Origin: an uncultured Bacilli bacterium
GTDB taxonomy: Bacteria > Bacillota_I > Bacilli_A > RF39 > UBA660
DNA length: 52,839 nt
Reading direction: 5' to 3'
NCBI GenBank assembly: GCA_948497845.1
Contig: CAOOMX010000003.1
Coordinates: 1-52,839 of the forward strand
Translations under genes and position numbers: made by a program
The notes under the pieces: model-generated
What the model was told of the DNA's origin: nothing
Databases searched by the model: none
The model's input: only the letters and a program-made list of their open reading frames with translations
Shown: piece after piece, positions 18,409 to 42,350 of the stretch
Layout of the letters: every line of letters starts with the position of its first letter
Position numbering within the stretch: position 1 is the stretch's first letter

Positions 18409-18455
18409 TGGTGTCCCCTCAGAGATTCGAACTCTGGACCCACTGATTAAGAGTC
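18409..18455 (-). tRNA. 3' half of split host tRNA-Lys(CUU): anticodon loop to CCA
   Basis: The minus strand reads GACTCTTAATCAGTGGGTCCAGAGTTCGAATCTCTGAGGGGACACCA. T arm is CAGAG/TTCGAAT/CTCTG. The acceptor 3' strand AGGGGAC pairs with GTCTCCT at 52760..52766. Confidence 0.85.
18445..18455. repeat. attL core (direct repeat GATTAAGAGTC)
   Basis: Identical to 52727..52737. The flanking bases differ on both sides. Confidence 0.85.
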
Positions 18456-18594
18456 TTTTTTTATATACTTTAATAGTGTCTAAAAAGAACTAATTATTGT
18501 ATATAAATTCCCATAAAACATAGGGATACCACCAAATTTATACTTATTTAGAAATATATGTTACATAAATAAATATAATAGTATATTGACCTTT

Positions 18595-18643
18595 TTGCAC
18601 CGATTTGCACCGATAGGTCATCCACTGAACTTTTTGCACCGAT
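18595..18643 (+). repeat. Three direct TTGCACCGAT repeats (candidate integrase/Xis arm-type sites)
   Basis: Copies lie at 18595..18604, 18605..18614 and 18634..18643. Two more copies lie at the other element end (52622..52642) in the same orientation. Confidence 0.6.
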
Positions 18644-18679
18644 TAGGGTAAAAAAATTCAGAATCAGTTTTCAAATAAA

Positions 18680-19014
18680 TGGTGGGCTGTTAGGGATTCG
18701 AACCCTAGACCCACTGATTACAACAATGTTATCATATTAGCTTTTTATCTAATATTTCTACATATTACTAATTCTATGTAGTTCAGCATACATTATCAGC
18801 CAAATACTTGGTTGTCGAACACTCGTGGAAGTATTATATTTATTCAACTTCTATGCGTTACACTACTTAATAGCCTTTCGCAATCTATTAAGTTAGCACG
18901 GTATTGGCATTTCAGCGTTTACCGTTTTTGCTCGATTTTCATTGTTATATTACTATAACAAGCTCCCAGTGTTTTACCAAGAGTCAGTTGCTCTACCAAC
19001 TGAGCTAACAGCCC
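18680..19014 (-). tRNA. Element-borne tRNA-Lys(CUU) interrupted by a 259-nt intron in the anticodon
   Basis: Exon 1 is 19014..18980, GGGCTGTTAGCTCAGTTGGTAGAGCAACTGACTCT. Exon 2 is 18720..18680, TAATCAGTGGGTCTAGGGTTCGAATCCCTAACAGCCCACCA. Joined, they give a 76-nt cloverleaf with acceptor GGGCTGT/ACAGCCC, T stem TAGGG/CCCTA and encoded CCA. Confidence 0.75.
18721..18979 (-). ncRNA. Group I-like intron (hand-folded)
   Basis: P1 is CUCU|UGG/CUGGGAG with U.G at the 5' splice site. P2 is UUGUUAUA-GUAA-UAUAACAA. Further helices: P3 UCGAGC/GUUCGA, P4 ACGGUA/UACCGU, P6 ACUUAAUAG/CUAUUAAGU, P7 GCAUA/UAUGC, P7.1 GAAGU/ACUUC. Then P8 CAACCAA-GUAU-UUGGCUG, P9 CUACAUA/UAUGUAG and P9.1 AUAUUAG/CUAAUAU. The last intron nucleotide is G. 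No covariance-model search was run. Confidence 0.6.
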
Positions 19015-19035
19015 ATAAATTTGAATTACTCATTG

Positions 19036-19044
19036 AGTATAGCA
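19036..19044 (-). promoter_or_regulatory. Extended -10 promoter (TGCTATACT) for the element tRNA
   Basis: The minus strand reads AGTATGCTATACT about 20 nt upstream of tRNA position 1. It closely resembles the ICE cassette promoters (AGTATGCTATAAT). Confidence 0.45.
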
Positions 19045-19096
19045 TACTTTTATAAAAAAATAAATACCATTTTTTCATTTTCTGCTTAATTTATGC

Positions 19097-19136
19097 AAAA
19101 AAAATAAATGCTAGAACAATTTTCATTATTCTAGCA
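19097..19136 (-). terminator. Terminator after the integrase gene
   Basis: On the minus strand, TGCTAGAA-12 nt-TTCTAGCA followed by TTTATTTTTTTT. Confidence 0.6.
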
Positions 19137-20678
19137 TTTTATATATTCATTGTTTTGTATCACTTCTAACAAGAATTTATTTCCATATACAGCCCTTATT
19201 CTTTTCTCAAAATCATCCTTTGAATATTGTTTCTGCAAAGATACCATATTTTCTAATGATGGATAATTCGCCATTAAATAATTTTTTGTAGAGTTTATAT
19301 TTTCTGATAAATTGCTATAAGTTATTTCGGCTTTTGGATTTATAGACTTTAGTAAATATATTATTTTACTAATCTCAACATATTCATTACCTGTAACTAT
19401 AGATGCTATATACATAATTGGGGCATAAAGAGTATTATCTTCGTTAATATCTATTCGATTATTAAAAACATTATCAAATACTGTAGTTGCTTTTTTCAGC
19501 TTTTCTTCTGACTTGTGAACGTATTTATAGGTAGTTTGAATATTTGCGTGTCCTGCAAGAGCTTGTACTTCTGATGGTGTTAAATCATCATTATAATTCA
19601 TTTGATAAGTTATATATGTATGTCTTAATCCATGAAAGGTAGCATCAATATCATGTTTCTTTGCGAATTTAGACCATAATTTACCAACGTATCTAGGGCG
19701 AAAATAATCGCTATCTTTATTTAAAAACAAATTGGGAAGATTCTTATAGTCTATACCAAATTGGGCTTTGTAAAGATTTACTAAAACCGTTCGATATTTT
19801 AAATACTGTTTTAGACTAATCATAAGTATTTCAGGTAATGGTATCCCACGTTCGCTATATTCGGATTTTAACTCATATTCTTCATATTGTCTTGTTTTGT
19901 AGTTTTGTTTTACAGCCTTTTTTAAAAATACTTTATTATGCGTAAAGTCGATGTCCGATTCGGGATCATCTTCGCTTTGACAATGAAGTCCACAAACTTC
20001 CTCTTCACGAAGTCCTGCACATAAGCCAAAGTAAAAGATTGTTTTATCTCTGCTTGATGCATATTTTTCTATTAAATCGTTTACATTTTCAAATTCTTCG
20101 TAAGGAATAAACCCAACTTCATTTTCAATAGTAATTTTTGGTTCTTCGACACCGTCCATAGGGTTTTCTGTAATGATTTTCCATTTTTTTTGTGCTTTAT
20201 TAAATAAGATTCGCAACATTACAAATTCATGATGTAAAGTATTTGAAGATATTTTTTCTCCAGTTTTTTTATTAGGATGGTTTGGATCAATTTTATCTCT
20301 TTTACTTTCTAAAGATAAAAATAATTCAATATCTGCTGTAGTTATTTGATATAAGAGTTGTTTGCCAAAATATTTTTTTAAAGTTTTAATTCGTCCTGCG
20401 TAATCTGTGAGAGTATTGGGGCTTGGTTTTTTAGGTTTATTTTGATACCACTCAAAATATATATCACAAAACTTCTCAAAAGTTATATTTTTATCTACAT
20501 AAATATCAATTCCTAATTTCTGTTTTGCTAAAAACTTATCCCTTTCGTCAATAGCTTGTTCTAATGTGTCATATCTTTCGTCAAAATTTCCTTTGATTTT
20601 CTTGCTTTTTCTTATTTGAACTCGAAACTTTCCCTCATCTGTAATATGGATATATCTTTCGGATTTTACTTTTTTCAT
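19131..20678 (-). CDS. int: Tyrosine-type integrase with a ~127-aa C-terminal extension
   Basis: Catalytic blocks are GLREEEVCGL (Arg I region), HGLRHTYITYQ and LAGHANIQTTYKYVH. It lies next to the att site. Confidence 0.85.
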   Translation of the reverse strand: MKKVKSERYIHITDEGKFRVQIRKSKKIKGNFDERYDTLEQAIDERDKFLAKQKLGIDIYVDKNITFEKFCDIYFEWYQNKPKKPSPNTLTDYAGRIKTLKKYFGKQLLYQITTADIELFLSLESKRDKIDPNHPNKKTGEKISSNTLHHEFVMLRILFNKAQKKWKIITENPMDGVEEPKITIENEVGFIPYEEFENVNDLIEKYASSRDKTIFYFGLCAGLREEEVCGLHCQSEDDPESDIDFTHNKVFLKKAVKQNYKTRQYEEYELKSEYSERGIPLPEILMISLKQYLKYRTVLVNLYKAQFGIDYKNLPNLFLNKDSDYFRPRYVGKLWSKFAKKHDIDATFHGLRHTYITYQMNYNDDLTPSEVQALAGHANIQTTYKYVHKSEEKLKKATTVFDNVFNNRIDINEDNTLYAPIMYIASIVTGNEYVEISKIIYLLKSINPKAEITYSNLSENINSTKNYLMANYPSLENMVSLQKQYSKDDFEKRIRAVYGNKFLLEVIQNNEYIKC

Positions 20679-20689
20679 AAATTATTTAA

Positions 20690-20962
20690 TTAAGAATTCC
20701 TGTTTTTTATCCAAGTTTCTATTTCAGATTTTACAAAATATCTTTCACGACCACTTTTAAAATAAGGCAAATTCTCGTTTTTAATAGCTTGGTCTAATTT
20801 ATATTTAGAAAAAAGTTTCGGGTATATAGTTTGTAATTGCTTGGCTGTATAGACAACAGAATCAGGGCTTTTATTAGTATTTATACCCATGCAATTAGCG
20901 ATAAAATCATAAGCTGTTATTCCTTTAAGAGTTTCAATAACTTGGTTATTTTCTTGATTCAT
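20690..20962 (-). CDS. xis: Excisionase-like helix-turn-helix DNA-binding protein
   Basis: 90 aa. The C-terminal block YTAKQLQTIYP...NLPYFKSGRERYFVKSEIETWI fits the excisionase-family HTH pattern. It lies immediately upstream of int. Confidence 0.55.
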   Translation of the reverse strand: MNQENNQVIETLKGITAYDFIANCMGINTNKSPDSVVYTAKQLQTIYPKLFSKYKLDQAIKNENLPYFKSGRERYFVKSEIETWIKNRNS

Positions 20963-20975
20963 AATTCCTCCTTTT

Positions 20976-23174
20976 CTATAATTGGTTTGTTATATTTTTG
21001 GCATCAAAAAAAGTAATAACAGTAGTATTACTTTCATTGATAGTTTGGATTTCTATGTTAATCATTGGCATTATTTGTTCAATGATTTTATTTTCTTCGT
21101 ACATACTAATTTTTCTATTTATAATTATTTGATTATCTACAGAATTTATATTAAATAGTTGTTCAACATTTTTTATTACAGTTTTTAATGTACTATTATC
21201 ATTTTCTATAATTGGCTCTAGCATATTATCGGATACATCGTTATTTGAAGTATTTAGATTTTCATAAGCATTTTTCATTTGTTCTACAGTATAGTAATTT
21301 TCTGTATTCTTTTTTAACATTTTGGGAGTACGTTCTATTGGAACAAACTCATAATCATTAAAAACGTCATTGTATAAATATGTATCTCGAAAGATAGCAT
21401 TTGACACAGTTGGGAATATAATTGTTTTATATTTTAAAGCAATAATTTCATTTGCTGTTAATAGTTCCCTACCGAGAAGAGAAGTAGTCTTATTAGCACC
21501 AATTTTGAAATGATCGGTACTTTGACTTATAGATTGGGTTTCTATAGTAGCCTTTCCGAGCTTACGTGAAATTATTTCGGCACAATCTACAGAGTTTGTT
21601 TTTAGGTAACACAAAGCCGAGTTATCTTGAATAATAGAAGAGGTTTCTTTTCCATAAACCTGATCGAGTTGAGCGAAACTTTGGATAAAGAACTGAAATC
21701 TCATACCTCTTGACCTAGCTACAGAAACTATCGTTTCAATATCTGCTAAAGGTGGGCAATTTGCGAACTCATCAAGTATCCACTCAATTTTACGGGGCAA
21801 GGTTCCATTATTTTGGGGCAAATTAGCGAGTTTTGTTAATTCCTTATAAAGAATACCTACAATAATAGTAATAAGCCCATAATAGCTTTTATCCTCGTCA
21901 GGAACGATAATATAAAGTATGCTTGGTTTTTCTACTAGAGAAGATATTTCAAAATCACTTGTACTAGTGATATTTTCAACGTTTAAATCATCAAAGATTT
22001 GCATTTTTTCTCCAAAGACAGCCGTAACACTTTTGTATGTATTTTCATTTGCCGATAAAATAGAAGTAAGGTAGTCTTTTGATAAAGTACCATATTCACG
22101 AGTATTAAGATTTCTTTGTAAATAAAGTTGATTTTCTTTCAATAAAGAAGAGTTTTGAAATTTTTTAATACTTGAAACATTGATTTTACTTTCAGGAATC
22201 AAGCCATTTTGATAGTCCTCTAAAAAAATACCAGTAATTCCTTTGAATAAGTTTTTAGAAGAATTAAGCCAAAATGGGTCTTTTGTTTCTTTTTCAGCAA
22301 ATATTAAATCAGCTACAGTATTCGTAAGTCGTATAGCTTCGGCTTGAGAAGATGAACTATGATTCTGATAATCTTTAATATAATTAAGCAAGTCTATGAT
22401 GCTAACAGTTTTATAGTCAAAATCTACTAGTTCATTTATAACACGGAAAAAATCTTCACTTTCTAATTTTTCATTGATAACATCAATTTTATTAAGAAAA
22501 TACTCGATAACATAATTATCAATATTGTTTTGTGTTTTAATATCATTTCGATAATTAGTATCAATTATAAATTTTTCATAATCAATATTTAATTTATGGA
22601 ATAGTAAACACATAGAAGAAAATAACTTTTCATCATATAGACAATGAACTTTCCACTCGTCAATAATAGGTTTCATAATATTTATATGTGTAGATAATGT
22701 TGGATTACGAAAATCTATAGTAATGATATTTTCATATCCATTGTCTTTGAATATTTTGGACGTCTTGCTAAAAATTTCTCCTTTGGGATCGGTAATTATT
22801 AAGGTCGGTTTTGATTTAGTTTGAGAAAAGAAAATTGTTTCATTAAGTACAAGAGTAGTCGATTTACCACTTCCTGTAGAACCTATAATAATCCAATGAG
22901 GACTAACATTGTCAAAATATATATTAGTAAATTTTCCTTTATCTTGTTCATAGTAAATAGGAAATCCTGCTTTCTCGATATGGTTAATATTTTCTTTTAA
23001 AAACGTTTTACTTATTTCTTTTAGAGTAGCGAACTTACTTGATCCATGCTCATTATGATTTTTTATTTTTGATTTACTTAATCTAGGCTCAATAAATAAA
23101 ATGAACAAGATTGTCGCAATAATTAAAACGAGAAGAAGAATTGAAAAAAAGGATAAGTTACTGTCTAATCTGAT
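20976..23174 (-). CDS. Type IV coupling protein (VirD4/TraG family)
   Basis: Walker A IIIGSTGSGKSTT and Walker B EWILDEFANCP. The tracked start is TTG 23108, but the frame is open to 23189 and encodes a TM helix (LSFFSILLLVLIIATILFILFI) that spans that TTG. ATC 23174 lies 9 nt after AAAGGA and is a possible true start, so the start is uncertain. Confidence 0.8.
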   Translation of the reverse strand: MRLDSNLSFFSILLLVLIIATILFILFIEPRLSKSKIKNHNEHGSSKFATLKEISKTFLKENINHIEKAGFPIYYEQDKGKFTNIYFDNVSPHWIIIGSTGSGKSTTLVLNETIFFSQTKSKPTLIITDPKGEIFSKTSKIFKDNGYENIITIDFRNPTLSTHINIMKPIIDEWKVHCLYDEKLFSSMCLLFHKLNIDYEKFIIDTNYRNDIKTQNNIDNYVIEYFLNKIDVINEKLESEDFFRVINELVDFDYKTVSIIDLLNYIKDYQNHSSSSQAEAIRLTNTVADLIFAEKETKDPFWLNSSKNLFKGITGIFLEDYQNGLIPESKINVSSIKKFQNSSLLKENQLYLQRNLNTREYGTLSKDYLTSILSANENTYKSVTAVFGEKMQIFDDLNVENITSTSDFEISSLVEKPSILYIIVPDEDKSYYGLITIIVGILYKELTKLANLPQNNGTLPRKIEWILDEFANCPPLADIETIVSVARSRGMRFQFFIQSFAQLDQVYGKETSSIIQDNSALCYLKTNSVDCAEIISRKLGKATIETQSISQSTDHFKIGANKTTSLLGRELLTANEIIALKYKTIIFPTVSNAIFRDTYLYNDVFNDYEFVPIERTPKMLKKNTENYYTVEQMKNAYENLNTSNNDVSDNMLEPIIENDNSTLKTVIKNVEQLFNINSVDNQIIINRKISMYEENKIIEQIMPMINIEIQTINESNTTVITFFDAKNITNQL

Positions 23175-23785
23175 AGTGTCATATCCTTTTCATTTTCTTT
23201 TGATTTATTGTTTGAGTAGAACATATTTGCAAAAGTATGCTTATGTCCGTGAATATCTTTAATGATAGGTTTATACGAATCCATTTTCTTATGAAAGCGA
23301 GAATAATTTTTTGCATTTCGTTCTACGTATTCGTAAACTGATTCATTGAAAGATTTTTCTTCTTCTCTTGCTGTCTTTAATAATTTAGTATATACAAAAG
23401 TTTTTGTATGCAAAGTCGAGGGGGAACAACGTTCTTTCCAACTAGCATAATTATTAAGCATAAATTCCAAATCACTATATATTTTATTATATGTATCATT
23501 TTTTCCATTTACAGAAAAGATAGTATATTTTTCAGCATCTACTAATCTTTTTGAAATTTTTTCGATTTCTTCTGTAGTAACTCCCTTAATCATAGCCTGA
23601 CTAACAGGATAAATATTTTGTTGAATATAAGGAGTTTTCTTATATAAATTCTTGTATAAATACCTTAATTGTTTTAAGTTTAAATTTCCTTTTTCTGTTT
23701 CTTCTTTTAAATAATCTCTTAACCCTGTAGAGTAGCCAACATTATTTTTAAATTTTAAAAGATATATGCTATTTAGTAAATTCAT
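23165..23785 (-). CDS. Hypothetical protein
   Basis: Tracked 206-aa ORF within the minus-strand operon. No motif recognised. Confidence 0.45.
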   Translation of the reverse strand: MNLLNSIYLLKFKNNVGYSTGLRDYLKEETEKGNLNLKQLRYLYKNLYKKTPYIQQNIYPVSQAMIKGVTTEEIEKISKRLVDAEKYTIFSVNGKNDTYNKIYSDLEFMLNNYASWKERCSPSTLHTKTFVYTKLLKTAREEEKSFNESVYEYVERNAKNYSRFHKKMDSYKPIIKDIHGHKHTFANMFYSNNKSKENEKDMTLSD

Positions 23786-24305
23786 TATTTAACTCCTGAT
23801 ACTGAATTTTCTTAAATTCATCGTAAGGCATTTCCTCAAATTTTTCATCAACAACACTTTGATTAACAAAAGAGTTTTCATCTGAAAGACCTAAATCTTT
23901 TGTTGTAATAATGCTACCTATATTATTGACTGTACAATGTTTTTCTACTATAAAACCCTCATCCCAAGAATCACAACCTAAATCATAACAAAAGAATCCT
24001 TTATCTTCATAATATTTTCTTTCTTCTTTGCTTAACCTGTAACCAAATTCGTGGAATAGTGGCTTTACTTCTTTAGTAAGTTCTTTTTCACGATACCACA
24101 ATTTACGTTGTTCTTTTGTATCACGATTATATGATAGCCAGTATATATTATTTTCTGTTGGGCTTCTTTTTCCCTGTAGGATAATATTGTAGTGATTATC
24201 CTTTAAAAATTTGATAACATCACTATCAAAATTTTTTCTTTTATTAGAGTTGATGGTATAAACACTTTCTCCAGTATCGTAATCATAAATTTCTATTGTT
24301 TTTAT
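23769..24305 (-). CDS. Hypothetical protein (start extended to ATA)
   Basis: The tracked start is TTG 24101, but the frame stays open for 70 more codons of protein-like sequence (KIKTIEIYDYDTGESVYTINSNKRKNF...). GGAGG (24315..24319) lies 9 nt upstream of ATA 24303..24305. Confidence 0.45.
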   Translation of the reverse strand: MKTIEIYDYDTGESVYTINSNKRKNFDSDVIKFLKDNHYNIILQGKRSPTENNIYWLSYNRDTKEQRKLWYREKELTKEVKPLFHEFGYRLSKEERKYYEDKGFFCYDLGCDSWDEGFIVEKHCTVNNIGSIITTKDLGLSDENSFVNQSVVDEKFEEMPYDEFKKIQYQELNNEFTK

Positions 24306-24414
24306 TTTTCATCGCCTCCAGTTCTTCAATACGTGAACAGTTGCTTGATACTTTACAAGCACAATATAAAAAAAGGACTAACAAAGCTGTTAATCCTATA
24401 AAAATATAAATCAT
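24277..24414 (-). CDS. Small membrane protein (45 aa), not in the ORF track
   Basis: ATG 24414 lies 6 nt after AGGAGGG. The sequence is MIYIFIGLTALLVLFLYCACKVSSNCSRIEELEAMKNKNNRNL. Confidence 0.4.
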
Positions 24415-24425
24415 TTCAAACCCTC

Positions 24426-24920
24426 CTATAAATAAAATTCGTAATTTTCCATTTTTGGAATATAATCTTTAAAATTATTATTTTTTCTTTCTTGTGATAA
24501 TTCAAAAGCAAGTTCTTCTACAGCCTTTATATTATCAGAGTATGCACAAAACATACCTGCTTCCGAATCATAATAAAACTCCCTACTCAAATGGGGGAGT
24601 TTGCCATCTATAAAAGTTCTAAATAAACTCTCATAATCGTAACCTGTCCCAAGAATATTGTCATTATGGCGACTTTTAAAAATATCTTTATCAAAGTATT
24701 CCTGATTCAATGTTAGAGAATACTTATTATCAATTTTCATTATATAAAAAGGTGTAAGATATTCTCTAAACCATTTATCAAATTTATTGTATTCTTTTTC
24801 TTTATAATATAAATCGGAAAGAAGAAGATTAGGATTCAGCTGTAGGTATAATTCCATACCTTTATTGATTCCATCTCCTAAATCTTTCCTTATTTTTTCA
24901 TATTCTTGTAATATACTCAC
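24426..24920 (-). CDS. Hypothetical protein
   Basis: Tracked 164-aa ORF. No motif recognised. Confidence 0.45.
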   Translation of the reverse strand: MSILQEYEKIRKDLGDGINKGMELYLQLNPNLLLSDLYYKEKEYNKFDKWFREYLTPFYIMKIDNKYSLTLNQEYFDKDIFKSRHNDNILGTGYDYESLFRTFIDGKLPHLSREFYYDSEAGMFCAYSDNIKAVEELAFELSQERKNNNFKDYIPKMENYEFYL

Positions 24921-24946
24921 TTAAAACCTCCATTTCTTTATAAAAT

Positions 24947-24974
24947 AAAAAAAGACTACCACGTATGGTAATCT
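24947..24974 (-). terminator. Cassette terminator (AGAUUACCA-UACG-UGGUAGUCU + U-run)
   Basis: The one non-Watson-Crick position is a G.U wobble only in the minus-strand RNA. Homologous hairpins lie at 39511..39537 and 40667..40696. Confidence 0.65.
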
Positions 24975-24986
24975 AAATTTGAAATA

Positions 24987-25526
24987 TTATTTTTCAGTAC
25001 AAGAAGCGTTTCTATTTTTATGTAAATCTAAAAAATACGTTTTATATTCACTTACTGAAAATTTATTATTTGAATCTATATATTTTTTAACACCTGATCC
25101 TAAAACTGATTCCTTATCGATTTTATTTATTTCATAATTGTAAGTTATAACATAAGTTTTATTGCCTTTTTCTTCAATAGTTGCTTTAACTCCGTCATAC
25201 TCATTAGCTCTAGTTACATATCCATCTTCTTGTTCTTTTCTTCTTTTGTATTGTTCTTCTGTAGAGTATTCTTCTTCACGAATAGTCTTAATACTTATAA
25301 GAATCATATCTTTAGTATAAGTAAATTCCTCTGTACTTTTTGTATTAGATTCATATTCATTTTCTGCTTCACTTTCGTATGTACAAGTCATTACTGTATT
25401 TTTAGTTTCAGAAACATTATTATCATTGTTCGAATTATTTTGATTTTCTTTCTTTTCATTACCACAGCCTGTAGTTAAGCCTATGATCATAACACAACAT
25501 ATTACACCAAATAAAATTTTTTTCAT
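24987..25526 (-). CDS. Lipoprotein, unknown function
   Basis: Signal peptide plus lipobox MKKILFGVICCVMIIGLTTGC. ATG 25526 is preferred over tracked GTG 25538. Confidence 0.65.
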   Translation of the reverse strand: MKKILFGVICCVMIIGLTTGCGNEKKENQNNSNNDNNVSETKNTVMTCTYESEAENEYESNTKSTEEFTYTKDMILISIKTIREEEYSTEEQYKRRKEQEDGYVTRANEYDGVKATIEEKGNKTYVITYNYEINKIDKESVLGSGVKKYIDSNNKFSVSEYKTYFLDLHKNRNASCTEK

Positions 25527-25572
25527 AATTCCACTCACTTTCGTAAACTATTATAACATATTTTACGTAAAT
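25527..25572 (-). promoter_or_regulatory. Conserved promoter/operator/5'UTR block, copy 1 of 3
   Basis: The minus strand reads TTTACGTAAA-ATATGTTATAATAG-TTTACGAAAGTGAGTGG: an extended -10 TGTTATAAT flanked by TTTACG half-sites. Near-identical blocks lie at 40595..40641 and 41278..41322. Confidence 0.6.
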
Positions 25573-25606
25573 TAAAAATATACGTTTTTAAAATTTATAC
25601 AAAATA

Positions 25607-25634
25607 AAAATAGTCCTGTACTAGCAACTATTTT
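25607..25634 (-). terminator. Terminator of the relaxase operon
   Basis: On the minus strand, AAAATAGT-12 nt-ACTATTTT followed by TATTTTG. Confidence 0.5.
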
Positions 25635-25730
25635 GGAAAGTGGTGTTGCCTGTGTGAAAGGCAAAGTTAAATGGTTCAATAGTTAAGTAACAACTTAACT
25701 ACTAGTAGTATAACATACTTCGACATAATA

Positions 25731-25970
25731 CTACAATAATACTTTTGAATCTTTTTTTAAATCATTAAAAGTACTTAATGCTGATTCTAGGCTACTGCGA
25801 TATTCTGCTCGTGATAAATAACCGTCTGTAAAGATAGCATCACATACAATAAAATGTTCTACATTATTTTCACTATAGACTAAATAACCGTTATCGCATT
25901 TATCTAAAATATGACACGTTCCTAAACCTGCATTTTCGATAACTTCATATTTTTTATAATCTTTTATCAT
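25731..25970 (-). CDS. Hypothetical small protein
   Basis: 79 aa, overlapping the relaxase stop by 4 nt (translational coupling). Confidence 0.45.
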   Translation of the reverse strand: MIKDYKKYEVIENAGLGTCHILDKCDNGYLVYSENNVEHFIVCDAIFTDGYLSRAEYRSSLESALSTFNDLKKDSKVLL

Positions 25971-27415
25971 TTATAAACTCCTTTCTCATTTTCTGAAAGC
26001 ATTTGATAAAATTGCTCGGCAACTTTATCTTGCTGATATTTTAATCTCCCTAAAGCACTTGTTACAGCTTTTTGATAGGAATAATTTTTTTGAAAACTAT
26101 TTTTTAATAAATTTGTTTTTTTATTTTTCTTTTGATTAAGATAAACTAAAAGCACAGCCTCGTTCATAATATCATTTATGGAAATCGCTGATTTGGAAGT
26201 AAAGCGATTATTATAAACGTATAATGAATTATTGACGATAGCATTTAAAACATAATTGTCATATTTTTCTAATTTATCTTGAACTAGCTTACTGTCTTTT
26301 GCATCTTCAAATCCTACATTACTAATATGATTTTCAATATCTATATTCTTAAAGATAGTATTGATTTCTTCGATGCTTTTATCTATTTCTTTTTTTGATA
26401 AATTGATTTCTTTAGAAGAAAGAATATTTTTCTTTATGTCCTGTGTAAGCAATCTAATTTCTTTACCTATATGATTTTTTGGAAGAGAATTATATTTGAT
26501 ATGTTTAGAATTTTGTCTTACCTGATTTAATAAATAACCTAATCTTAATATTTTGTATTCTAAATCTATATTTTTAATATTCTTTAAAGTAAAACTTCTT
26601 TCTTTTGGATTGAAAAACTTTTTATATTCTTCCAAACTTTGATTTAATTTTATAAGAGATGGAGTAAATACCTTTGCCCTCTCAATAGAGAGGATAGATT
26701 GACGTTTCATAAAATTTAATTCTTCCTCATTAAGATTTAATCGTTGTTTGAAGTGAAGTTTATTATCTGTAGTACGATACGATTCTTTTTTTTCAATAAA
26801 ACCGATATGGAAATGATAATTATTTCTATCTACAGCCGAGTGAAGAGCTACTACCCAATCCATTGTTTGATTTGGATTTTCATAGCCACACCTTTTTAAA
26901 AACATAGGCATTATTTTTGTAGCAAGTTCTTTTTGTAATTCATCAATACCAATATTCTGATCGACATAATCTTTATTAAAAGATAAAACGGATAAATGAA
27001 TATTACTTTTATCAAAAAGTTTAGACCAGTAAAAATTTTTTTTACAGGCTTCGGAATCACTAACGTATTTACCTGACTTATCCATCATCATCTTTTCACG
27101 TTTCATTGAATTTAATTCCATGATAGATGATTCTTTTTTACCACCCATCATATAATCAAAAAGGTTAGAATTATTTTCTAAATCTTTCAAAGATATATTG
27201 GCTTTTTCTTCATTACGAGAATAAGTCATATATCCACTTTTTCCAAAAAGATAATCTTTTGCTTGACGAGAATAATCTTCTTTGTTCTTACATTGTTTGA
27301 AAATTCTTTTATCTGTTTTTCTATCCTTACCCTTATAAAGTTTATAATCGTTGTCTTTATTATTGACAGCAAAGAAAGGGTTATCAATAAAAACTACTTT
27401 AGGACTACTCATCAT
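25967..27415 (-). CDS. Putative conjugative relaxase (MobL-like)
   Basis: The N-terminus MMSSPKVVFIDNPF...SGYMTYSRNEEKA provides a candidate catalytic Tyr region. A histidine cluster HSAVDRNNYHFH (H-x8-H-x-H) is present. It lies next to the candidate oriT. The family call is from memory of MobL N-termini. Confidence 0.55.
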   Translation of the reverse strand: MMSSPKVVFIDNPFFAVNNKDNDYKLYKGKDRKTDKRIFKQCKNKEDYSRQAKDYLFGKSGYMTYSRNEEKANISLKDLENNSNLFDYMMGGKKESSIMELNSMKREKMMMDKSGKYVSDSEACKKNFYWSKLFDKSNIHLSVLSFNKDYVDQNIGIDELQKELATKIMPMFLKRCGYENPNQTMDWVVALHSAVDRNNYHFHIGFIEKKESYRTTDNKLHFKQRLNLNEEELNFMKRQSILSIERAKVFTPSLIKLNQSLEEYKKFFNPKERSFTLKNIKNIDLEYKILRLGYLLNQVRQNSKHIKYNSLPKNHIGKEIRLLTQDIKKNILSSKEINLSKKEIDKSIEEINTIFKNIDIENHISNVGFEDAKDSKLVQDKLEKYDNYVLNAIVNNSLYVYNNRFTSKSAISINDIMNEAVLLVYLNQKKNKKTNLLKNSFQKNYSYQKAVTSALGRLKYQQDKVAEQFYQMLSENEKGVYK

Positions 27416-27638
27416 TATTCGCCATTTCTAGAACTGATTTTATTTCCTCTAGCAGGGAGATAATCTCTTCCTCTTTAAAGGCTTTGAATTTTAATTCTTC
27501 GTATTTTAAAATACCAAGTTCAAGTAAATATTCTAATGTTTTATATGAATATGGCTGATTGATTTCTGTACCTATTATGTCAATTTTATCATTGATAGAT
27601 TTTTTTAGACGGATACATTTTTTTATAATTCTCTCCAT
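27405..27638 (-). CDS. Hypothetical small protein
   Basis: 77 aa, overlapping the relaxase start. Confidence 0.4.
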   Translation of the reverse strand: MERIIKKCIRLKKSINDKIDIIGTEINQPYSYKTLEYLLELGILKYEELKFKAFKEEEIISLLEEIKSVLEMANNDE

Positions 27639-27641
27639 AAA

Positions 27642-27965
27642 CTAATCCCACATTTTAAATTTATTTTTCTTGATATTATCATAAAATGAATTAAGATATT
27701 TGTCATCTTTAGGATCAATATTTTCACGGAAACCCAAATTAGAAAATGTCTGTTCCTCCAAACTTTTGATTAAAAAAACTGTAGATAATATTTTTTCTAA
27801 TTTATTATCAATATTGCTAATGTTGTAAAAAATTTTCTCATATTCAAAAAACGTTTTTATGATTTCATTGATAGCTTTATTCTTTGTAGTTATCTTATTT
27901 AACTTCATATAACTTTTGATTTTATCTTCTAAATAATCATCGATATTAACTGAACCTCTTGCCAT
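27642..27965 (-). CDS. Possible ribbon-helix-helix relaxosome accessory protein
   Basis: The N-terminus MARGSVNIDDYLEDKIKSYM fits a beta-strand plus helix RHH start. It is the first gene downstream of the candidate oriT. Confidence 0.3.
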   Translation of the reverse strand: MARGSVNIDDYLEDKIKSYMKLNKITTKNKAINEIIKTFFEYEKIFYNISNIDNKLEKILSTVFLIKSLEEQTFSNLGFRENIDPKDDKYLNSFYDNIKKNKFKMWD

Positions 27966-28011
27966 ATTATACCTCTATTTAGGGTGTAGATATGAGAACG
28001 GGATATGATAA

Positions 28012-28088
28012 TTGCCACCTTATAACGTCAAAACCCTTATTTCATAAGGCTTGACGAGGTGGCAAAACAATTTTCGCACTTGCGAAAA
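28012..28088. other. Candidate oriT: 54-nt composite hairpin plus an 18-bp palindrome
   Basis: The hairpin is TTGCCACCT/AGGTGGCAA + CGTCAA/TTGACG + CCTTAT/ATAAGG (28012..28065). The palindrome is TTTTCGCA-CT-TGCGAAAA (28071..28088). Both lie in the 212-bp gap upstream of the relaxase operon. Confidence 0.45.
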
Positions 28089-28177
28089 TGACACCAATTC
28101 CCATAAAAAAGTACACCAAGTATTATATACACCTAGATTTTATAAGGAAAGGGAGAGGTGCAAAAATGGTGCAATTT

Positions 28178-28651
28178 CTAATTATTGCTATTGATAGGCT
28201 TTTTTAAGTCTTTTTCTAATTCAAGACTATTTGAAGATAATTCTTGTGTATTTGTTTCTAATTCTAGCATTTTAGTTTTATAAATTTCATTAGCTTGTTT
28301 GATTTCATTTATTACTAATTCTAATTTATATTGCTTATTAAAATAATTTTTTTTAGTTAAATAAGATTCGTCTTTCATTGATGAATTATTATTGACTTTA
28401 TAAATAAAAGCACCATAATAATTATGCTCGTTATAATAGATTAAACTTACATCTCTTGCTTTGTTTTTATATTTTAAATTATAAAACTTGATCTTGTCGA
28501 TATTATTATTATCTAGCAATTCAATGTCAAAATCAATTCCATATTTTTGTTTTATATTTTCTAATTTTCTTTTAAATTCTAATTTCAAATCATCTTGTTT
28601 TTTGATTTTTTCTTTTAACTTCTTATCACTTGTTATACTCAAAAGCATCAC
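28178..28651 (-). CDS. Hypothetical coiled-coil protein
   Basis: Tracked 157-aa Lys/Glu-rich ORF. Confidence 0.4.
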   Translation of the reverse strand: MMLLSITSDKKLKEKIKKQDDLKLEFKRKLENIKQKYGIDFDIELLDNNNIDKIKFYNLKYKNKARDVSLIYYNEHNYYGAFIYKVNNNSSMKDESYLTKKNYFNKQYKLELVINEIKQANEIYKTKMLELETNTQELSSNSLELEKDLKKPINSNN

Positions 28652-29612
28652 TCCTTTTTAACATAGTTTGATAGCAAATATATTGATATTGTTCATAAAA
28701 ATAATGAAGAGTTTTGACAAACCTTTCTTTATCTTCTGAACAAAAAACTTTATTTATATCTTTATATTTTCCGTCATCGATTGTACTTATTAAGTCATTA
28801 CAAAAAGATGGAATATTCAATTTATCAAGTTCGTCTTTTAATTCTTGCTGTGCTTTTCTTCCTGCACTATCATTGTCTAAAGCTAATATAAAACATCCTT
28901 TATAATCATAATCTTTACATAAGGAGAGTAGCCTACTTGTATTTGTTGTTCCATTAAGACTTACTGTTTGAATTTCGGGTATTACTGATTCTAAACTCAA
29001 ACTATCAATGATACTCTCTGTAACATATATTATAGAATTATTATCACTATATTTGATAAGATTTTCATTGAAAAGATAACTTGTTCCTTTTGATTTATAT
29101 TTTCCATTGGAAGTAGTAGAACGTGCAAAGTAGCTATGATCGTTCAATGGAAAGACTACAAGCTGTCTTTTATCATCGTAGCCAATTCGATATTTAACGA
29201 GGAGATTATCTTTAATTCCACGTCCTGCAAGATAATGACATTGTGTAGTTTTTTTTAAGCAATTATTAAAATATTTTGTAAAATCTTTTTCGATATAATC
29301 AACTTCTTTAACTGTAGTTATTGGAACAATTTTATCAAGCTCGTTAAAAATTTCTGCCAATTTGTTATGCTTTTCACGAAAGTTAGTAATACCGAATTGT
29401 ATTTCTATCAAGTCGTAAATATCATACCAAACATTACACGAAAAACATTTGCACTTGTTATGACGGGGAGAATAAGACATACTAGGATTATTATCGGGAT
29501 GGTTAGGATTAAGACAATGGAAATTATTTTTTAAATTGTTTATACCACAATAAGCTGTAAGATATTGAGGTAAGTAACTTTTGAATTTTTGTATTTCTGA
29601 TTCTTCAATCAT
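28626..29612 (-). CDS. DNA primase (CHC2 zinc finger + Toprim)
   Basis: Zinc finger FHCLNPNHPDNNPSMSY...KCKCFSCNVWYDIYDLI. Toprim acidic motifs YVTESIIDSLSLE and ALDNDSAGRKA. Confidence 0.75.
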   Translation of the reverse strand: MIEESEIQKFKSYLPQYLTAYCGINNLKNNFHCLNPNHPDNNPSMSYSPRHNKCKCFSCNVWYDIYDLIEIQFGITNFREKHNKLAEIFNELDKIVPITTVKEVDYIEKDFTKYFNNCLKKTTQCHYLAGRGIKDNLLVKYRIGYDDKRQLVVFPLNDHSYFARSTTSNGKYKSKGTSYLFNENLIKYSDNNSIIYVTESIIDSLSLESVIPEIQTVSLNGTTNTSRLLSLCKDYDYKGCFILALDNDSAGRKAQQELKDELDKLNIPSFCNDLISTIDDGKYKDINKVFCSEDKERFVKTLHYFYEQYQYICYQTMLKRSDAFEYNK

Positions 29613-29614
29613 TT

Positions 29615-30202
29615 TTATTCCAATTCATAACTGCTACTCAAGTCTTTACCTAATGTGTCAAATTCTAAAATATTACAGCCAGTTTGTTCACTTAACTTTA
29701 AATCATGTTCTTTATATACGTTGTAGTTATCATAAACATATTTTTTTGCTTCCTGTAATGTTCCAAAACTTTTAAAGAACGTGTTATCTCTATGCACAGA
29801 AATGTAATTGCTATTATCGAACCAAAACAATTTAAAATTAAATTCTAAATTAGCTTTATCTTTCAATGAATAAATACAGTTTGTTTTTTGAAAATCTTTT
29901 AGATTACCATCATAAGTAATACAAAAGTCATCAGTTATACAATTTAGAATTAAATCTTTTTGATTTTTTAAATCATTACTTATTAAAGTATAACCACCTT
30001 CGCCAAAATCAAAACTAGTAACATTATTATCAGTATATATCAATTTCATTGTATGATTTTTGCCTTTTGAAAGATAAATAAAATCTAGTGTTGGATCTAA
30101 TCCCAATGAGATTAACTCAACTTTTTTATTTTCTTTTACTTTTAGTAGAATAGACGAATTATTATTTTCTTGTATCTCAACTATATCGCATAATTTTATC
30201 AT
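29615..30202 (-). CDS. Hypothetical protein
   Basis: Tracked 195-aa ORF. Confidence 0.4.
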   Translation of the reverse strand: MIKLCDIVEIQENNNSSILLKVKENKKVELISLGLDPTLDFIYLSKGKNHTMKLIYTDNNVTSFDFGEGGYTLISNDLKNQKDLILNCITDDFCITYDGNLKDFQKTNCIYSLKDKANLEFNFKLFWFDNSNYISVHRDNTFFKSFGTLQEAKKYVYDNYNVYKEHDLKLSEQTGCNILEFDTLGKDLSSSYELE

Positions 30203-30465
30203 ACTTTATTTTCCTTTTTTTGATTATTTTGATTAAAAGAAAATATGGAGTTAATTTCATCAATAAAAAATTGATTTGATATAATTTTAGCTTTAAGTAA
30301 AGCCTTTAAAAGTGAATCTGTTGTTTTCTTGATTTTTTCTTGCAATTTATGATTTTCTTTTTCTAATTCTTTGATTTTAGTTAAAAGACTATTTCTTTCT
30401 TTTTCATAATCGTTTAATTTTGTACTAATCATTTGAAATTCTGAAATAAATTTATTCGTATTCAA
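30199..30465 (-). CDS. Hypothetical coiled-coil protein
   Basis: Tracked 88-aa ORF with a 4-nt overlap to the downstream gene. Confidence 0.4.
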   Translation of the reverse strand: MNTNKFISEFQMISTKLNDYEKERNSLLTKIKELEKENHKLQEKIKKTTDSLLKALLKAKIISNQFFIDEINSIFSFNQNNQKKENKV

Positions 30466-30925
30466 AACCTAATTCCTCCTTTTCATTTTCTAATTGTATT
30501 ATTTTTTCTTTTGCTAGGTTTAAGCCATTTTTTAAGGCTGGACTATTTTCTATATCTTGACTTGTGTAACCAAGTTCCTCAATAACTCTTGTTAAATCTC
30601 TGTCATAGCCAAACTCATGATTGTTAAGTTCAGTAAAGAACATATCATAAATAAAGCCTGTACCAGTTTTATCATTTTTTATTAAAGTAGCTTTTTCTTG
30701 CTGATGACTAATAAGCATATCTCCCCAAGATTTGAGATTTTCTTTTGCCATGCAAACACCATTTTTTAGTAGCACAAGTTTGTCCTGATCCTTTTCTGTA
30801 AGTCCTATTTTTTTAAGTCCATTTTTTAACTGTTCTTTCTTTAGAGCAACAAAAAAAGGAAAATTATCTAAATCTTTTTGATGACGTTTTTTCATTTCTT
30901 TATACTGATTCAATATATCCAACAC
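30452..30925 (-). CDS. Hypothetical protein
   Basis: Tracked 157-aa ORF. Confidence 0.4.
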   Translation of the reverse strand: MLDILNQYKEMKKRHQKDLDNFPFFVALKKEQLKNGLKKIGLTEKDQDKLVLLKNGVCMAKENLKSWGDMLISHQQEKATLIKNDKTGTGFIYDMFFTELNNHEFGYDRDLTRVIEELGYTSQDIENSPALKNGLNLAKEKIIQLENEKEELGFEYE

Positions 30926-30931
30926 CTTTCT

Positions 30932-31597
30932 TTATTTTTGTGATTCATATTCATTACTATTAGAAGAGTATTCCCTTAATAGATAAAGTTTATCTTCTTG
31001 TAATATTTCGCATATATCATCAGAACGAATTTTCTCTAAATCGTCCAATGAAAGAAATTCTTTAATATAAACTGCTCTTGTTAATTCTTCTGCCAAATAC
31101 ATAGGGTTTAAATAATTGGTATTATTTCTATAACAAATTTTCATAAGCCTGCCTAAATCTTCAACAGGTATGTCATTTTTCGTATTTTTAATTCCTAAAT
31201 AAAAACCAAAGTCATCATAGTTAAAATCTTCGGGAACACTTTTACTAACTTCTTGATATTTTTTTAAATTTTCAAGTATTTCTAATCTTTTATCCATTAT
31301 GTTAGTTTTTATAAGTGTTCTTCTAATTTCCTTTTCCATATACTCAAAAGGATTGAAATTTTTGGGATCAACTCCATCCCCATAATAGTGTGAGAGAGGA
31401 AACAAATCATAACTTTTATCTCGAGTAACACGATATTCGTTAGTGTTTAAATCATATAACATATATTCTTTGCCATCAGGAGCATTTAAACAACCCGATC
31501 CATCAGCATATTTCTCCCAGTACCAACCATCAGGAAGTAGTTTTGCTTTTTCACGTTTCACATTTGAAAAGCAAAAATCTTCGTTATAACTGCTCAT
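30932..31597 (-). CDS. Hypothetical protein
   Basis: Tracked 221-aa ORF. Confidence 0.4.
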   Translation of the reverse strand: MSSYNEDFCFSNVKREKAKLLPDGWYWEKYADGSGCLNAPDGKEYMLYDLNTNEYRVTRDKSYDLFPLSHYYGDGVDPKNFNPFEYMEKEIRRTLIKTNIMDKRLEILENLKKYQEVSKSVPEDFNYDDFGFYLGIKNTKNDIPVEDLGRLMKICYRNNTNYLNPMYLAEELTRAVYIKEFLSLDDLEKIRSDDICEILQEDKLYLLREYSSNSNEYESQK

Positions 31598-31599
31598 TA

Positions 31600-31878
31600 C
31601 TATTTATCTCCATATCTCAAACGGAATACTAGTTCAAAGTACCCTGCTAGGGTAAGCATACGAACTAAATCTAATTTCAAAATAGAAGAAAGTCTTACTA
31701 AATTGTTTGGATTGATATTGATTATTTCGGCTCTTTCTATTTTATGGATGGTTCTATAATTGATATTAGATAAAACAGCCAAAGAACGTAAAGACATATT
31801 ATTTTCTATACGAGCATCTTTGATATATTTGCCTAAACGAATAAGATTTTGTTCTGCGATAGAGTTAAGCGACTTCAA
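31600..31878 (-). CDS. XRE-family helix-turn-helix regulator
   Basis: LGKYIKDARIENNMSLRSLAVLSNINYRTIHKIERAE is a typical HTH_XRE pattern. Confidence 0.65.
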   Translation of the reverse strand: MKSLNSIAEQNLIRLGKYIKDARIENNMSLRSLAVLSNINYRTIHKIERAEIININPNNLVRLSSILKLDLVRMLTLAGYFELVFRLRYGDK

Positions 31879-32551
31879 GACCGTTTTCCTTTTCTACAGT
31901 TGGTATATGATGTAGTATTTCTTCGACATGGTAAAACTTATATATATCGTTGATGGAATCGCCAATAAGGAAATATTTATTATCACTATTATATATTTGT
32001 AAGGCATCATCACATTTCATATAGTTATCTAACCGATAGTATTTTTCAAAGTTATCTTTATCAGGTCGAACATAACGAAAACATTTGTCATTTTCCATTA
32101 AGAAAATAATGTATTTTGAAATATAGCCATTATCCCACAATTCTTTACCACGTTGATATAATTTTTTAAAATTTTCCTCTGATAAATCGAGAGTGATAGC
32201 CTCACACTTATTATTTTCATTTACACCCTCTAACGTTATAGCAACTAAATTCATAGAGTTAGTTGGAATAACACGATCTTTATCATTGATATATAAGTTT
32301 AATTTATCTAAAAATTTTGTTTGTCTATGTTCAGTAATATTGATAATTTCATCAGGAAACATACAGGAATTACACTTATTACATTTATCTACTTCGGGAA
32401 CATCACTATCGTAAAATTTCTCAAAGTATTTTCGTGATAATTTATTAGAATTAGAAAAATTATCAATTCTTTTATATTCATTATCACAATGTTCGCATTT
32501 TTCATTGATTTTTACAGAATAAAAATAATTATTTAAAGTGTTTTCTTTTAT
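31865..32551 (-). CDS. Hypothetical protein with an N-terminal Cys-rich (zinc-ribbon-like) extension; ATA/ATT start
   Basis: The tracked start is ATG 32362, but the frame is open for 63 more codons (…KCEHCDNEYKR…DKCNKCNSC…). AAGGAGG (32560..32566) lies 5 nt before ATT 32554 and 8 nt before ATA 32551. Confidence 0.5.
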   Translation of the reverse strand: MKENTLNNYFYSVKINEKCEHCDNEYKRIDNFSNSNKLSRKYFEKFYDSDVPEVDKCNKCNSCMFPDEIINITEHRQTKFLDKLNLYINDKDRVIPTNSMNLVAITLEGVNENNKCEAITLDLSEENFKKLYQRGKELWDNGYISKYIIFLMENDKCFRYVRPDKDNFEKYYRLDNYMKCDDALQIYNSDNKYFLIGDSINDIYKFYHVEEILHHIPTVEKENGLEVA

Positions 32552-32571
32552 AATATCTACCTCCTTAATTT

Positions 32572-35953: not shown

Positions 35954-36020
35954 TTTTGCTTTTATATATTGCTTTGGCTTTTTAGAATATTGTTTCTTAA
36001 TTACTTTATTTTCTTTATTT

Positions 36021-36350
36021 TTAATTTTTTCTTCTTTTGAAAGTTTTTGTAAACGTCTTATATTGATCCCTCCTTACTTCGTTACTAGTTAAATGATAAT
36101 AATATGTTTTTTTACGAAATAAAAAACTTCCAACCAATAAAATCAATTTGTACATCCTATTTTGCTTTGAAAAGGAAACAGGAACAAGTAAAAATATTCC
36201 TGTACCAATTATAATTAAGCTAGTTTGATAAAAACCAATAGTAAATAGGATGATAAAAGCAAGTGCAAAAACACTCGCTAGAATAATATCTTTAATTTCC
36301 AAATTAAATAAACCTAAATTTCGTTTTGTTGTTTGTAAGGTAATATACAA
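36021..36350 (-). CDS. PrgI/VirB3-like small membrane protein
   Basis: TTG start 7 nt after AGGAGG. It has two TM helices and lies directly upstream of virB4. Confidence 0.45.
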   Translation of the reverse strand: MYITLQTTKRNLGLFNLEIKDIILASVFALAFIILFTIGFYQTSLIIIGTGIFLLVPVSFSKQNRMYKLILLVGSFLFRKKTYYYHLTSNEVRRDQYKTFTKTFKRRKN

Positions 36351-36362
36351 AAAACAGTCCTC

Positions 36363-38003: not shown

Positions 38004-38010
38004 TTAACCT

Positions 38011-39427: not shown

Positions 39428-39510
39428 AATATCAGTCCTTTCTTTTTATTTACTAAATATTGAAATTAGAAATAATAATGAATTGCACCACCTCCTTTAA
39501 AATAGGGCAT

Positions 39511-39537
39511 AAAAAAAGATTACCAGTATGGCAATCT
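39511..39537 (-). terminator. Cassette terminator (AGAUUGCCA-UAC-UGGUAAUCU + U-run)
   Basis: Homologous to 24947..24974. The wobble pair exists only in the minus-strand RNA. Confidence 0.65.
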
Positions 39538-39568
39538 AATTTTTTGTTTCTTTTGACAGTTAAACTTA

Positions 39569-40641: not shown

Positions 40642-40666
40642 AGAAATATGTTTCTAAATTTATGCA

Positions 40667-42346: not shown

Positions 42347-42350
42347 TTAA

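Follow-up and report, generated by a model that had tools for sequence, protein, structure and literature searches.

To our knowledge, the group I introns of bacterial tRNA genes form a small closed set of a compact intron type, restricted to a few tRNA types in cyanobacteria and proteobacteria, and phage introns have seemed confined to protein-coding genes. As far as known, the cyanobacterial and proteobacterial tRNA introns are of the IC3 type. The cases described are tRNA-Leu(UAA) of cyanobacteria and plastids, cyanobacterial tRNA-fMet, tRNA-Ile(CAU) of Azoarcus, tRNA-Arg(CCU) of α-proteobacteria and tRNA-Leu(UAA) of Burkholderia (PMC3984707, PMC13168695, PMC2686568, PMC2504315). In phages, the introns of terminase and tail genes were classed as IA1 or IA2 by Tourasse and Kolstø, and JCL1032 and ROSA are listed among the phage group I intron homologues in the same study (PMC2504315).

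The locus described here occupies 335 nt of the window, by which we mean the whole 52,839-nt stretch of uncultured Bacilli DNA that was analysed. Very probably it is a functional tRNA-Lys(CUU) gene in which a self-splicing group I intron without an ORF separates positions 35 and 36; the intron is of phage type, IA-like in having a P7.1. By function, its closest known systems are the small ORF-less introns in the anticodon loops of bacterial tRNAs, with which it shares its size (200-300 nt), its lack of an ORF, its place in the loop, a P1 made from anticodon-loop bases and an anticodon stem that holds the exons. It differs from the IC3-type tRNA introns by the presence of P7.1 between P7 and P3', and from the known tRNA introns in general by its sequence homology, which is to phage introns in protein-coding genes, by its tRNA and its 35/36 site, and by its occurrence in uncultured Bacilli- or Mollicutes-like genomes and on conjugative elements. 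By descent, as judged from sequence, its closest relatives are the IA-type introns in protein-coding genes of phages and prophages.

The novelty lies in finding together a phage-type intron, a tRNA-Lys gene, this lineage and a spare gene carried by elements that split the same tRNA; the classes of the ribozyme and of its host gene are known. In a literature search of incomplete coverage, we found no report of a group I intron in tRNA-Lys, in a Bacillota tRNA gene or on a conjugative element. The intron-bearing genes, at least 23 in number and located on chromosomes and on two kinds of integrative elements, would add a new phylum and a new tRNA to the bacterial tRNA group I introns, and present a phage-type intron whose guide appears retargeted to a tRNA anticodon loop.

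The intron and its phage relatives

Once joined, the two exons form a 76-nt cloverleaf with an encoded CCA end, which ARAGORN calls as tRNA-Lys(CUU), in agreement with the perfect tRNA of that length and identity read in the initial annotation. The insertion point lies in the anticodon, between U35 and U36. The parts of the locus are the following:

18980..19014, minus strand: exon 1 (35 nt), tRNA positions 1-35, ending in CUCU; U35 is the U of the 5' splice site
18721..18979, minus strand: ORF-less group I intron, 259 nt
18680..18720, minus strand: exon 2 (41 nt), tRNA positions 36-76 including the encoded CCA
18963..18983, minus strand: P1 hairpin, exon CUCU and intron UGG against the guide CUGGGAG, with U35·G at the splice site
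18782..18938, minus strand: catalytic core, P3 to P7'; a covariance model based exclusively on phage and prophage introns covers it over the full length

The elements of the intron are given in intron positions, and the window coordinate is 18980 minus the intron position:

11-17: internal guide sequence
19-26/31-38: P2, with a GUAA loop
45-50/160-165: P3
55-60/77-82: P4
63-65/72-74: P5
83-85/116-118: P6, 3 bp
87-95/107-115: P6a, 9 bp
124-128/190-194: P7
129-133/148-152: P7.1
169-172/177-180: P8
199-205/216-222: P9
226-231/240-245: P9.1
259: terminal G

A pattern derived from the conserved L7.1 loop yielded 119 loci in species-representative genomes, and the family HMM gave 157 matches, 53 of which were full length. 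These 53 homologues were aligned with MAFFT, so that the alignment is free of any structure fitting, and the helices counted on it were those of the initial annotation plus a 3-bp P6 under P6a. Standard pairs occupy 93.0% of the cells; column shuffles give 68.5%, and sliding the partners by 1-3 columns lowers the figure to 30-42%. Double-sided changes are found at 57 of the 62 predicted pairs, and the covariation score reaches 0.633, compared with 0.19 for the shuffles and about 0.1 for the slid partners. P3 (99.7% paired, 6/6 pairs covarying) and P7 (100% paired, 3/5 covarying) cross each other and thereby form the group I pseudoknot; P7.1, located between P7 and P3', is 100% paired with all five pairs covarying, and no second hairpin (P7.2) is present in that interval. 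In P1, which was counted like the exon stems on 16 aligned split genes, 99% of the cells are paired, the U·G is present in 16/16 and the extension shows compensatory G-C/A-U changes; in all 16 the intron ends in ...UG right before UAAUCAG.

The helices drawn by hand in the initial annotation (P1, P2 with its GUAA loop, P3, P4, P7, P8, P9 and P9.1) are therefore all present and supported by covariation, its order of the P3-P7 pseudoknot is correct, and the extra P7.1 that had reminded its author of subgroup IA is borne out by the alignment. Its P6 is likewise present and covarying, and is divided here into P6 and P6a; its J8/7 of 6 nt has to be corrected to about 9 nt. The remaining pairings are short: P5 has 2 bp in the window, its first pair being C·C, and 2-3 bp at most, and P10 has at best 2-3 bp. 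The minimum free energy fold recovers most helices (z=-5.9), and P1 is folded too. Furthermore, the alignment displays an A-rich J3/4, an AA/AA internal loop between P4 and P5, a conserved J8/7 and a GNRA loop on P2, all of which belong to the expected group I architecture.

A BLAST comparison with phage genomes aligned approximately positions 40-256 of the intron at 70-80% identity, with E values down to 3e-38. Phage ROSA is among these homologues, together with:

crAss-like phages cr7_1 and cr131_1: terminase large-subunit genes (terL)
cr118_1: split helicase gene
cr6_1: region of an 'intron-encoded endonuclease'
Staphylococcus phages SA2 and F1: split terminase (terL) genes
a Leptolyngbya phage: next to a LAGLIDADG gene
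B. thuringiensis phage-plasmids: next to a GIY-YIG gene
Lactobacillus phage JCL1032: terL annotated as a joined CDS; family HMM E=6.6e-33

Several of the phage homologues adjoin LAGLIDADG, GIY-YIG or HNH genes.

The boundaries aligned in this way make sense in the phage genes themselves. In the case of phage F1, whose intron has no ORF, joining GAGGU to the sequence past the aligned terminal G gives an uninterrupted terL frame, and the exon end GAGGU pairs with the aligned guide GCCUC, with a U·G at the site. In the case of cr118_1, also ORF-less, the join at the aligned boundaries restores the Walker A motif GSGKS of the helicase, and in the homologues L007 and L006 the aligned terminal G is the in-frame 3' splice site. 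An HMM made from 37 phage and prophage introns, with no tRNA member, finds 18973..18724 as its single match in the window (E=1.6e-54). A covariance model made from 26 phage and prophage cores, again with no tRNA member, matches 18938..18782 over its full length and nowhere else in the window (168.2 bits, E~5.5e-40). A plasmid search gave partial core matches only, in phage-like plasmids, and a scan of viral contigs with the junction of intron and exon 2 gave only chance matches in tRNA-Asn genes.

With the IA1/IA2 introns of Gram-positive and crAss-like phages, the tRNA-Lys intron shares a core that is 70-85% identical in nucleotides, the L6 AUUNCGAAAGG, the L7.1 loop UGAAUAAAUAUAAU, the J8/7 GAAAAUG and the 3' end GAUAACA...G, and one HMM or covariance model spans both. 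The comparison set comprised introns of terminase, helicase and tail genes, with those of JCL1032, ROSA and B. cereus-group prophages. The phage introns reside in protein-coding genes and many of them contain homing-endonuclease ORFs, whereas the tRNA-Lys intron is ORF-less and, unlike them, has an internal guide fitted to the anticodon loop of a tRNA; moreover it has P7.1 only between P7 and P3', while the definition of IA1/IA2 includes both P7.1 and P7.2. As for the IC3 type, which has a compact core lacking P7.1 and is represented by the Azoarcus and Anabaena introns, the intron departs from it by its P7.1, by relatives that, as far as found, are all phage or prophage introns or tRNA-Lys copies, and by the silence of the Rfam model RF00028.

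A search with RF00028 had been proposed in the initial annotation as the check on the intron. It gave no match at the gathering score in the whole window and only noise at E<=10 in a 701-nt slice, and none in four phage homologues either. The same model nevertheless reaches its gathering score on two members of the family (L103:5708-5975, which belongs to the 53-sequence alignment, and L062:4397-4664), so that its silence on the window seems to reflect a limit of sensitivity and is no counter-evidence; the check came out negative and is not decisive.

The conjugative element and a possible role of the intron

Integrative elements that target tRNA genes usually hold the 3' part of the tRNA in their attP, and the gene is rebuilt on integration. 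The element of the window is organized as follows:

18456..52726, minus strand: integrative conjugative element, about 34.3 kb
52727..52766, minus strand: 5' part of the host tRNA-Lys(CUU), which ends in the attL copy of the core (52737..52727) and is followed by element DNA
18445..18455, minus strand: attR copy of the 11-bp core GACTCTTAATC, with which the displaced 3' part of the host gene (18455..18409) starts
18594..18642, minus strand: three TCGGTGCAAA repeats between the tRNA and the element end; two more at 52622..52641
19131..20678, minus strand: tyrosine integrase, 515 aa (Pfam Phage_integrase 1.6e-15), directly upstream of the tRNA
19106..19139, minus strand: terminator-like hairpin 3' of the integrase gene, which sets that gene apart from the tRNA gene

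Besides the tyrosine integrase, the element encodes a coupling protein, a VirB4-like ATPase, an M23 hydrolase, ArdC-like and primase-like proteins, a methylase and an SpaA/thioester adhesin, and a 90-aa ORF at 20690..20962 is a candidate for an excisionase, should the element have one; no relaxase was identified in the window, and relatives of the element give weak relaxase/MobL matches. The integrase, the coupling protein, the VirB4-type ATPase and the flanking direct repeats at a disrupted target identify it as an integrative conjugative element. The initial annotation had already spoken of a split host gene, and this holds: its parts lie at 52766..52727 and 18455..18409, with an 11-bp repeat, and the two halves rejoin into a perfect 76-nt intron-less tRNA-Lys(CUU). 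The element is inserted in the anticodon loop of the host gene and the host tRNA is not restored, since the two have no more than the 11 bp in common and nothing on the element makes up for the missing part of that gene. In its tyrosine integrase, its anticodon-loop crossover, its short end repeats and the arm-type repeats by the integrase gene it resembles the tRNA-targeting integrative elements; unlike them, it supplies a complete second gene, the core of which is interrupted by a ribozyme. This is an unusual lifestyle for an integrative element, in which the tRNA target is split for good and a spare gene is carried.

The gene with the intron has the integrase gene on one side and the TCGGTGCAAA repeats on the other, about 225 nt inside the element end. 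The repeats, presumed to be arm-type integrase sites or excisionase sites, also occur in L014 and L018-21. Integrase homologues at 63-74% identity have the same tRNA and intron downstream; the layout is the same in L014, with an integrase 68% identical to that of the window, and in L075 (63%). Two other loci, L098 and L130, have kept the tRNA, the arm region and a degenerate displaced half, with no integrase upstream. A second, unrelated type of element is found in L149, with a 25% identical integrase and the opposite orientation; this element truncates a tRNA-Lys and carries an intron-bearing copy, its crossover falling after the anticodon stem, outside the intron site. Relatives of the integrase that target tRNA-Thr(UGU) have no replacement tRNA, which indicates that a spare tRNA is not obligatory in the integrase family. 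A search of genome contigs for the integrase with single-protein patterns found nothing, the patterns being too specific.

The intron is not restricted to such elements. Seven of the 14 loci in representative genomes have a host-type acceptor stem and no att remnant. The downstream flank of L033 is homologous to the host flank of the window, including an SH3-domain gene that also neighbours the tRNA in L024 and L069. In L143, exon 2 is identical to the displaced host half of the window and the upstream sequence resembles that of the host, yet the intron is present. From these flanks it follows that intron-plus and intron-minus alleles of one chromosomal gene coexist among close relatives, and the element of the window sits in an intron-minus allele. 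This amends the initial annotation, which placed the intron on the element: as read from these loci, the intron is no peculiarity of the latter, and related uncultured Bacilli carry it in orthologous chromosomal genes.

Within the gene copy on the element, the intron bisects the 11-bp integration core (GACTCT/TAATC), a point absent from the initial annotation. In the model we propose, the integrase would recombine at the core GACTCTTAATC in the anticodon loop of an intron-less chromosomal tRNA-Lys(CUU) and leave this gene split, and the element-borne copy would replace the broken host gene. With the intron in the middle of its core, the element copy would be unable to serve as its own attB, and intron-plus chromosomal alleles would likewise be no targets for the integrase. 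That the position of the intron serves to mask the integration site is suggested here tentatively. It is counterbalanced by the presence of the same intron in chromosomal genes with no element nearby, by the tRNA-Thr(UGU)-targeting relatives that lack a replacement tRNA and by the L149 crossover outside the intron site; the intron may simply have come to the element with a captured gene.

The main rival to complementation and masking is a neutral selfish passenger, an intron that splices, came with an intron-bearing tRNA-Lys and plays no role for the element, its position in the core being coincidental. We regard the chances of this explanation as even, and the data do not separate it from complementation and masking. 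The chromosomal tRNA-Lys(CUU) genes that contain the same intron without any element speak for it, as do the tRNA-Thr-targeting relatives, which manage without a replacement tRNA, and the anticodon loop is the usual site of bacterial tRNA introns (PMC3984707). On the other hand, six of the 23 intron-bearing genes adjoin att junctions, and they do so in two unrelated element architectures; an intron-less tRNA-Lys(CUU) copy was seen on none of these elements, and with an intact copy the attR junction and an attB core would be about 230 nt apart.

A functional link between the intron and the conjugative element, in which the host gene is destroyed, replaced by a copy with a ribozyme-hidden core and later succeeded by this copy as the resident gene, is possible, and we advance it with more doubt than conviction. 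Could a self-splicing intron act at the DNA level as a shield against site-specific recombination while the RNA stays normal? If so, recombination with the split halves, or decay of the element, would make the intron-bearing gene resident, a chromosome with such a resident gene would be immune to further integration, and the conjugative elements would be a vehicle for the spread of an intron that has no endonuclease. This would suggest a use for an intron, namely the removal of a recombination site from the DNA with the gene product unchanged.

Maintenance, probable splicing and product of the gene

In addition to the gene of the window, 22 further split tRNA-Lys(CUU) genes were found, which brings their number to at least 23. 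The further genes come from:

L014, an ENA contig, adjoining the 68%-identical integrase: 1 gene
representative genomes labelled uncultured Bacilli, Mycoplasma, Tenericutes or Bacillales: 14 genes
metagenome contigs: 7 genes

In the 16 aligned genes, the two strands of the acceptor stem, 330 nt apart across the intron, pair at 100% and 5 of the 7 pairs show double changes; variants of this stem include GGGCUGU/ACAGCCC and GUCUCCU/AGGGGAC. In the T stem pairing is also 100%, and 4 of the 5 pairs have changed on both sides; from position 8 on, exon 1 has the same sequence in 16/16 homologues. A comparison of the window with L014 shows identities of 100% in the exons and about 95% in the intron, the flanking element DNA having diverged clearly further; where P1 and P6a differ, they do so by compensatory changes. 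The identical exons, the diverged flanks, the compensatory changes and the covarying stems together point to a gene that needs splicing to work. The view expressed at the outset, that this is a maintained gene and no decayed copy, whose acceptor and T stems differ from those of the host gene only by paired changes, is thereby strengthened: the paired changes are seen on comparison, and both stems covary across the intron. The same can be said of the original proposal that a group I intron occupies the anticodon of a tRNA-Lys(CUU) gene borne by the element: the phage homology, the covariation and the match to an independently built covariance model all argue for it. We consider with high confidence that the locus contains a group I intron within a maintained tRNA-Lys(CUU) gene.

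Splicing would follow the established chemistry of group I introns, the local support being the conservation of the required parts. Transcription of the pre-tRNA would start at a promoter of its own, past the terminator of the integrase gene. C32-U35 and the first intron bases would pair with the guide GGGAG to form P1, with U35·G as the wobble, and a free guanosine held in P7 would attack after U35. The terminal G259 would then enter the same P7 pocket and U35 would attack the bond between G259 and U36, the anticodon stem keeping the exons together, and the outcome would be a normal 76-nt tRNA. That the intron splices in vivo in this manner appears likely.

The gene could instead be a pseudogene inactivated by insertion, with the 259 nt a dead intron or another insertion and the tRNA halves mere relics. 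The silence of RF00028 and of default ARAGORN would fit such an explanation, and splicing is deduced from the sequence. We nevertheless think it very improbable. The exons are 100% identical between elements with diverged flanks, and 16 genes show covariation of the acceptor stem and of the T stem across the intron; conservation, accompanied by compensatory changes, extends to the core, the U·G, the internal guide and the terminal G, and host halves that are truly displaced do decay, as in L098 and L130.

A functional gene with a different product, tRNA-Thr(UGU) or tRNA-Thr(CGU) spliced after position 32-34, is a still weaker prospect. It originates in ARAGORN, which, run with its intron option, finds the same split gene in the window but sets its junction behind position 32 and reads the tRNA as Thr(UGU), Thr(UGU)/Thr(CGU) calls being also obtained for several homologues. 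Several junctions are indeed possible from the sequence alone, but those required for a tRNA-Thr break both the P1 pairing and the rule that the intron follows a U and ends in G, which leaves only CUCU/...G/UAAUC (slashes mark the splice sites). This join gives the exact anticodon arm of the intron-less host gene, and the D and anticodon arms are identical to those of the host tRNA-Lys(CUU). The one-base ambiguity of the junction disappears with L069, the intron of which begins with C and so fixes the end of exon 1 at ...CUCU. The Thr readings were rejected on the splice-site rules and on this sequence, and the initial description of 259 nt that follow a U and end in G stands, its junction now fixed by the host anticodon arm and by L069.

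That the 259 nt are a CIME-like remnant of a site-specific integrative element, left by the same integrase family, is suggested by their insertion exactly within the integrase core sequence and was rejected as next to impossible, for the core is not duplicated at their ends, they contain no arm repeats and their homology with phage introns runs from end to end, with the covariation and the covariance-model match in addition. Inspection of the sequence also agrees with the earlier statement that neither a target-site duplication nor terminal inverted repeats are present at the ends of the 259 nt.

In the whole 52,839-nt window, no tRNA was called anywhere by ARAGORN without the intron option or by Rfam. 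Routine annotation misses the split gene for this reason, and the genomes of this group will consequently seem to have no tRNA-Lys(CUU). A promoter scan upstream of the tRNA reported no -35/-10 pair; an extended -10-like motif, TGCTATACT, is visible by eye only at approximately 19041..19033.

Repeated sequences at the ends of the element and within it

The attL junction, where the element meets the 5' part of the host tRNA-Lys(CUU), and the regions close to both ends contain several repeats, which are listed below with an intergenic sequence repeated inside the element.

Repeats and hairpins of the element
52716..52748, minus strand: attL junction
52748..52739, minus strand: host D and anticodon-stem sequence, GTAGAGCAAC
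52725..52716, minus strand: inverted copy contributed by the element end, GTTGCTCTAC
about 52670..52645, minus strand: clear terminator-like hairpin, AAGCATTTA..TAAATGCTT followed by a T run
18594..18642 (three copies) and 52622..52641 (two copies), same orientation: TCGGTGCAAA repeats, near both element ends
25521-25581, 40589-40649 and 41274-41334: 61-nt intergenic sequence in three copies, 74-89% identical

The element sequence at attL is a perfect 10-bp inverted copy of the host stretch that it faces, so that the truncated host tRNA could adopt a long hairpin fold around its anticodon loop. The inverted repeat may constitute a core-type site for the integrase or a means of neutralising the truncated transcript, and the terminator-like hairpin lies beyond it. 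The TCGGTGCAAA repeats probably serve the integrase or an excisionase as arm-type sites; GTGCAAA repeats are also found in the element with a 68%-identical integrase (L014) and in the L018-21 and L149 elements described below. Each copy of the 61-nt sequence lies directly upstream of the start codon of a minus-strand ORF; the sequence probably acts as a common promoter or leader.

Related elements and their target tRNA genes

The elements of L018-L021, whose integrase is 65% identical to that of the window, terminate (about 5890-5950) in a tRNA-Thr(UGU) 3' half that has been displaced (GACTTGTAATCAGTAGG...CCGGCACCA). Host genes for tRNA-Tyr, tRNA-Gln and tRNA-Lys(UUU) follow shortly after it, and the elements are found in four distinct downstream contexts. 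The target of this integrase branch is the anticodon loop of a different tRNA, and no replacement tRNA was seen on these elements. An integrative element of a second kind is present in L149 (4021-5715), where a host tRNA-Lys cut off after ...CAGTGGGT is followed by GTGCAA repeats, then by a tRNA-Lys that contains the intron and has a third type of acceptor stem (GCACCCU/AGGGUGC) and, on the opposite strand, by an integrase only 25% identical to that of the window.

Presumed resident genes and the intron family

L098 (about 1730-1790) and L130 (about 2480-2540) still have the tRNA with its intron, together with the arm region and an att core; the displaced host 3' half is decayed and no related integrase is found in the upstream region. 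Both loci look like remnants in which the tRNA of the element is now a resident gene. In the chromosomal allele L143 (5824-6187), the intron is present, exon 2 is identical to the displaced host half of the window and the upstream region is host-type; L143 and the host gene in the window represent an intron presence/absence polymorphism within one gene.

Environmental and viral contigs (L141, L144, L148, L152-L154), retrieved solely through a common TGTAATCAGTGGGTC, contain an ARAGORN-predicted tRNA-Asn(GUU) with a 23-nt insertion, adjoining a normal tRNA-Asn. The predicted gene may be an artefact or another type of interrupted tRNA.

Several prophage loci (L063, L097, L050, L062, L103) carry three to five copies of the intron family within a span of 1.5-4 kb, and in many of these copies about 1 kb, presumably an endonuclease gene, is inserted after P5. 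The gathering score of RF00028, the generic group I model of Rfam, is attained by only a minority of these copies, which points to a sensitivity gap of this model for the phage intron family.
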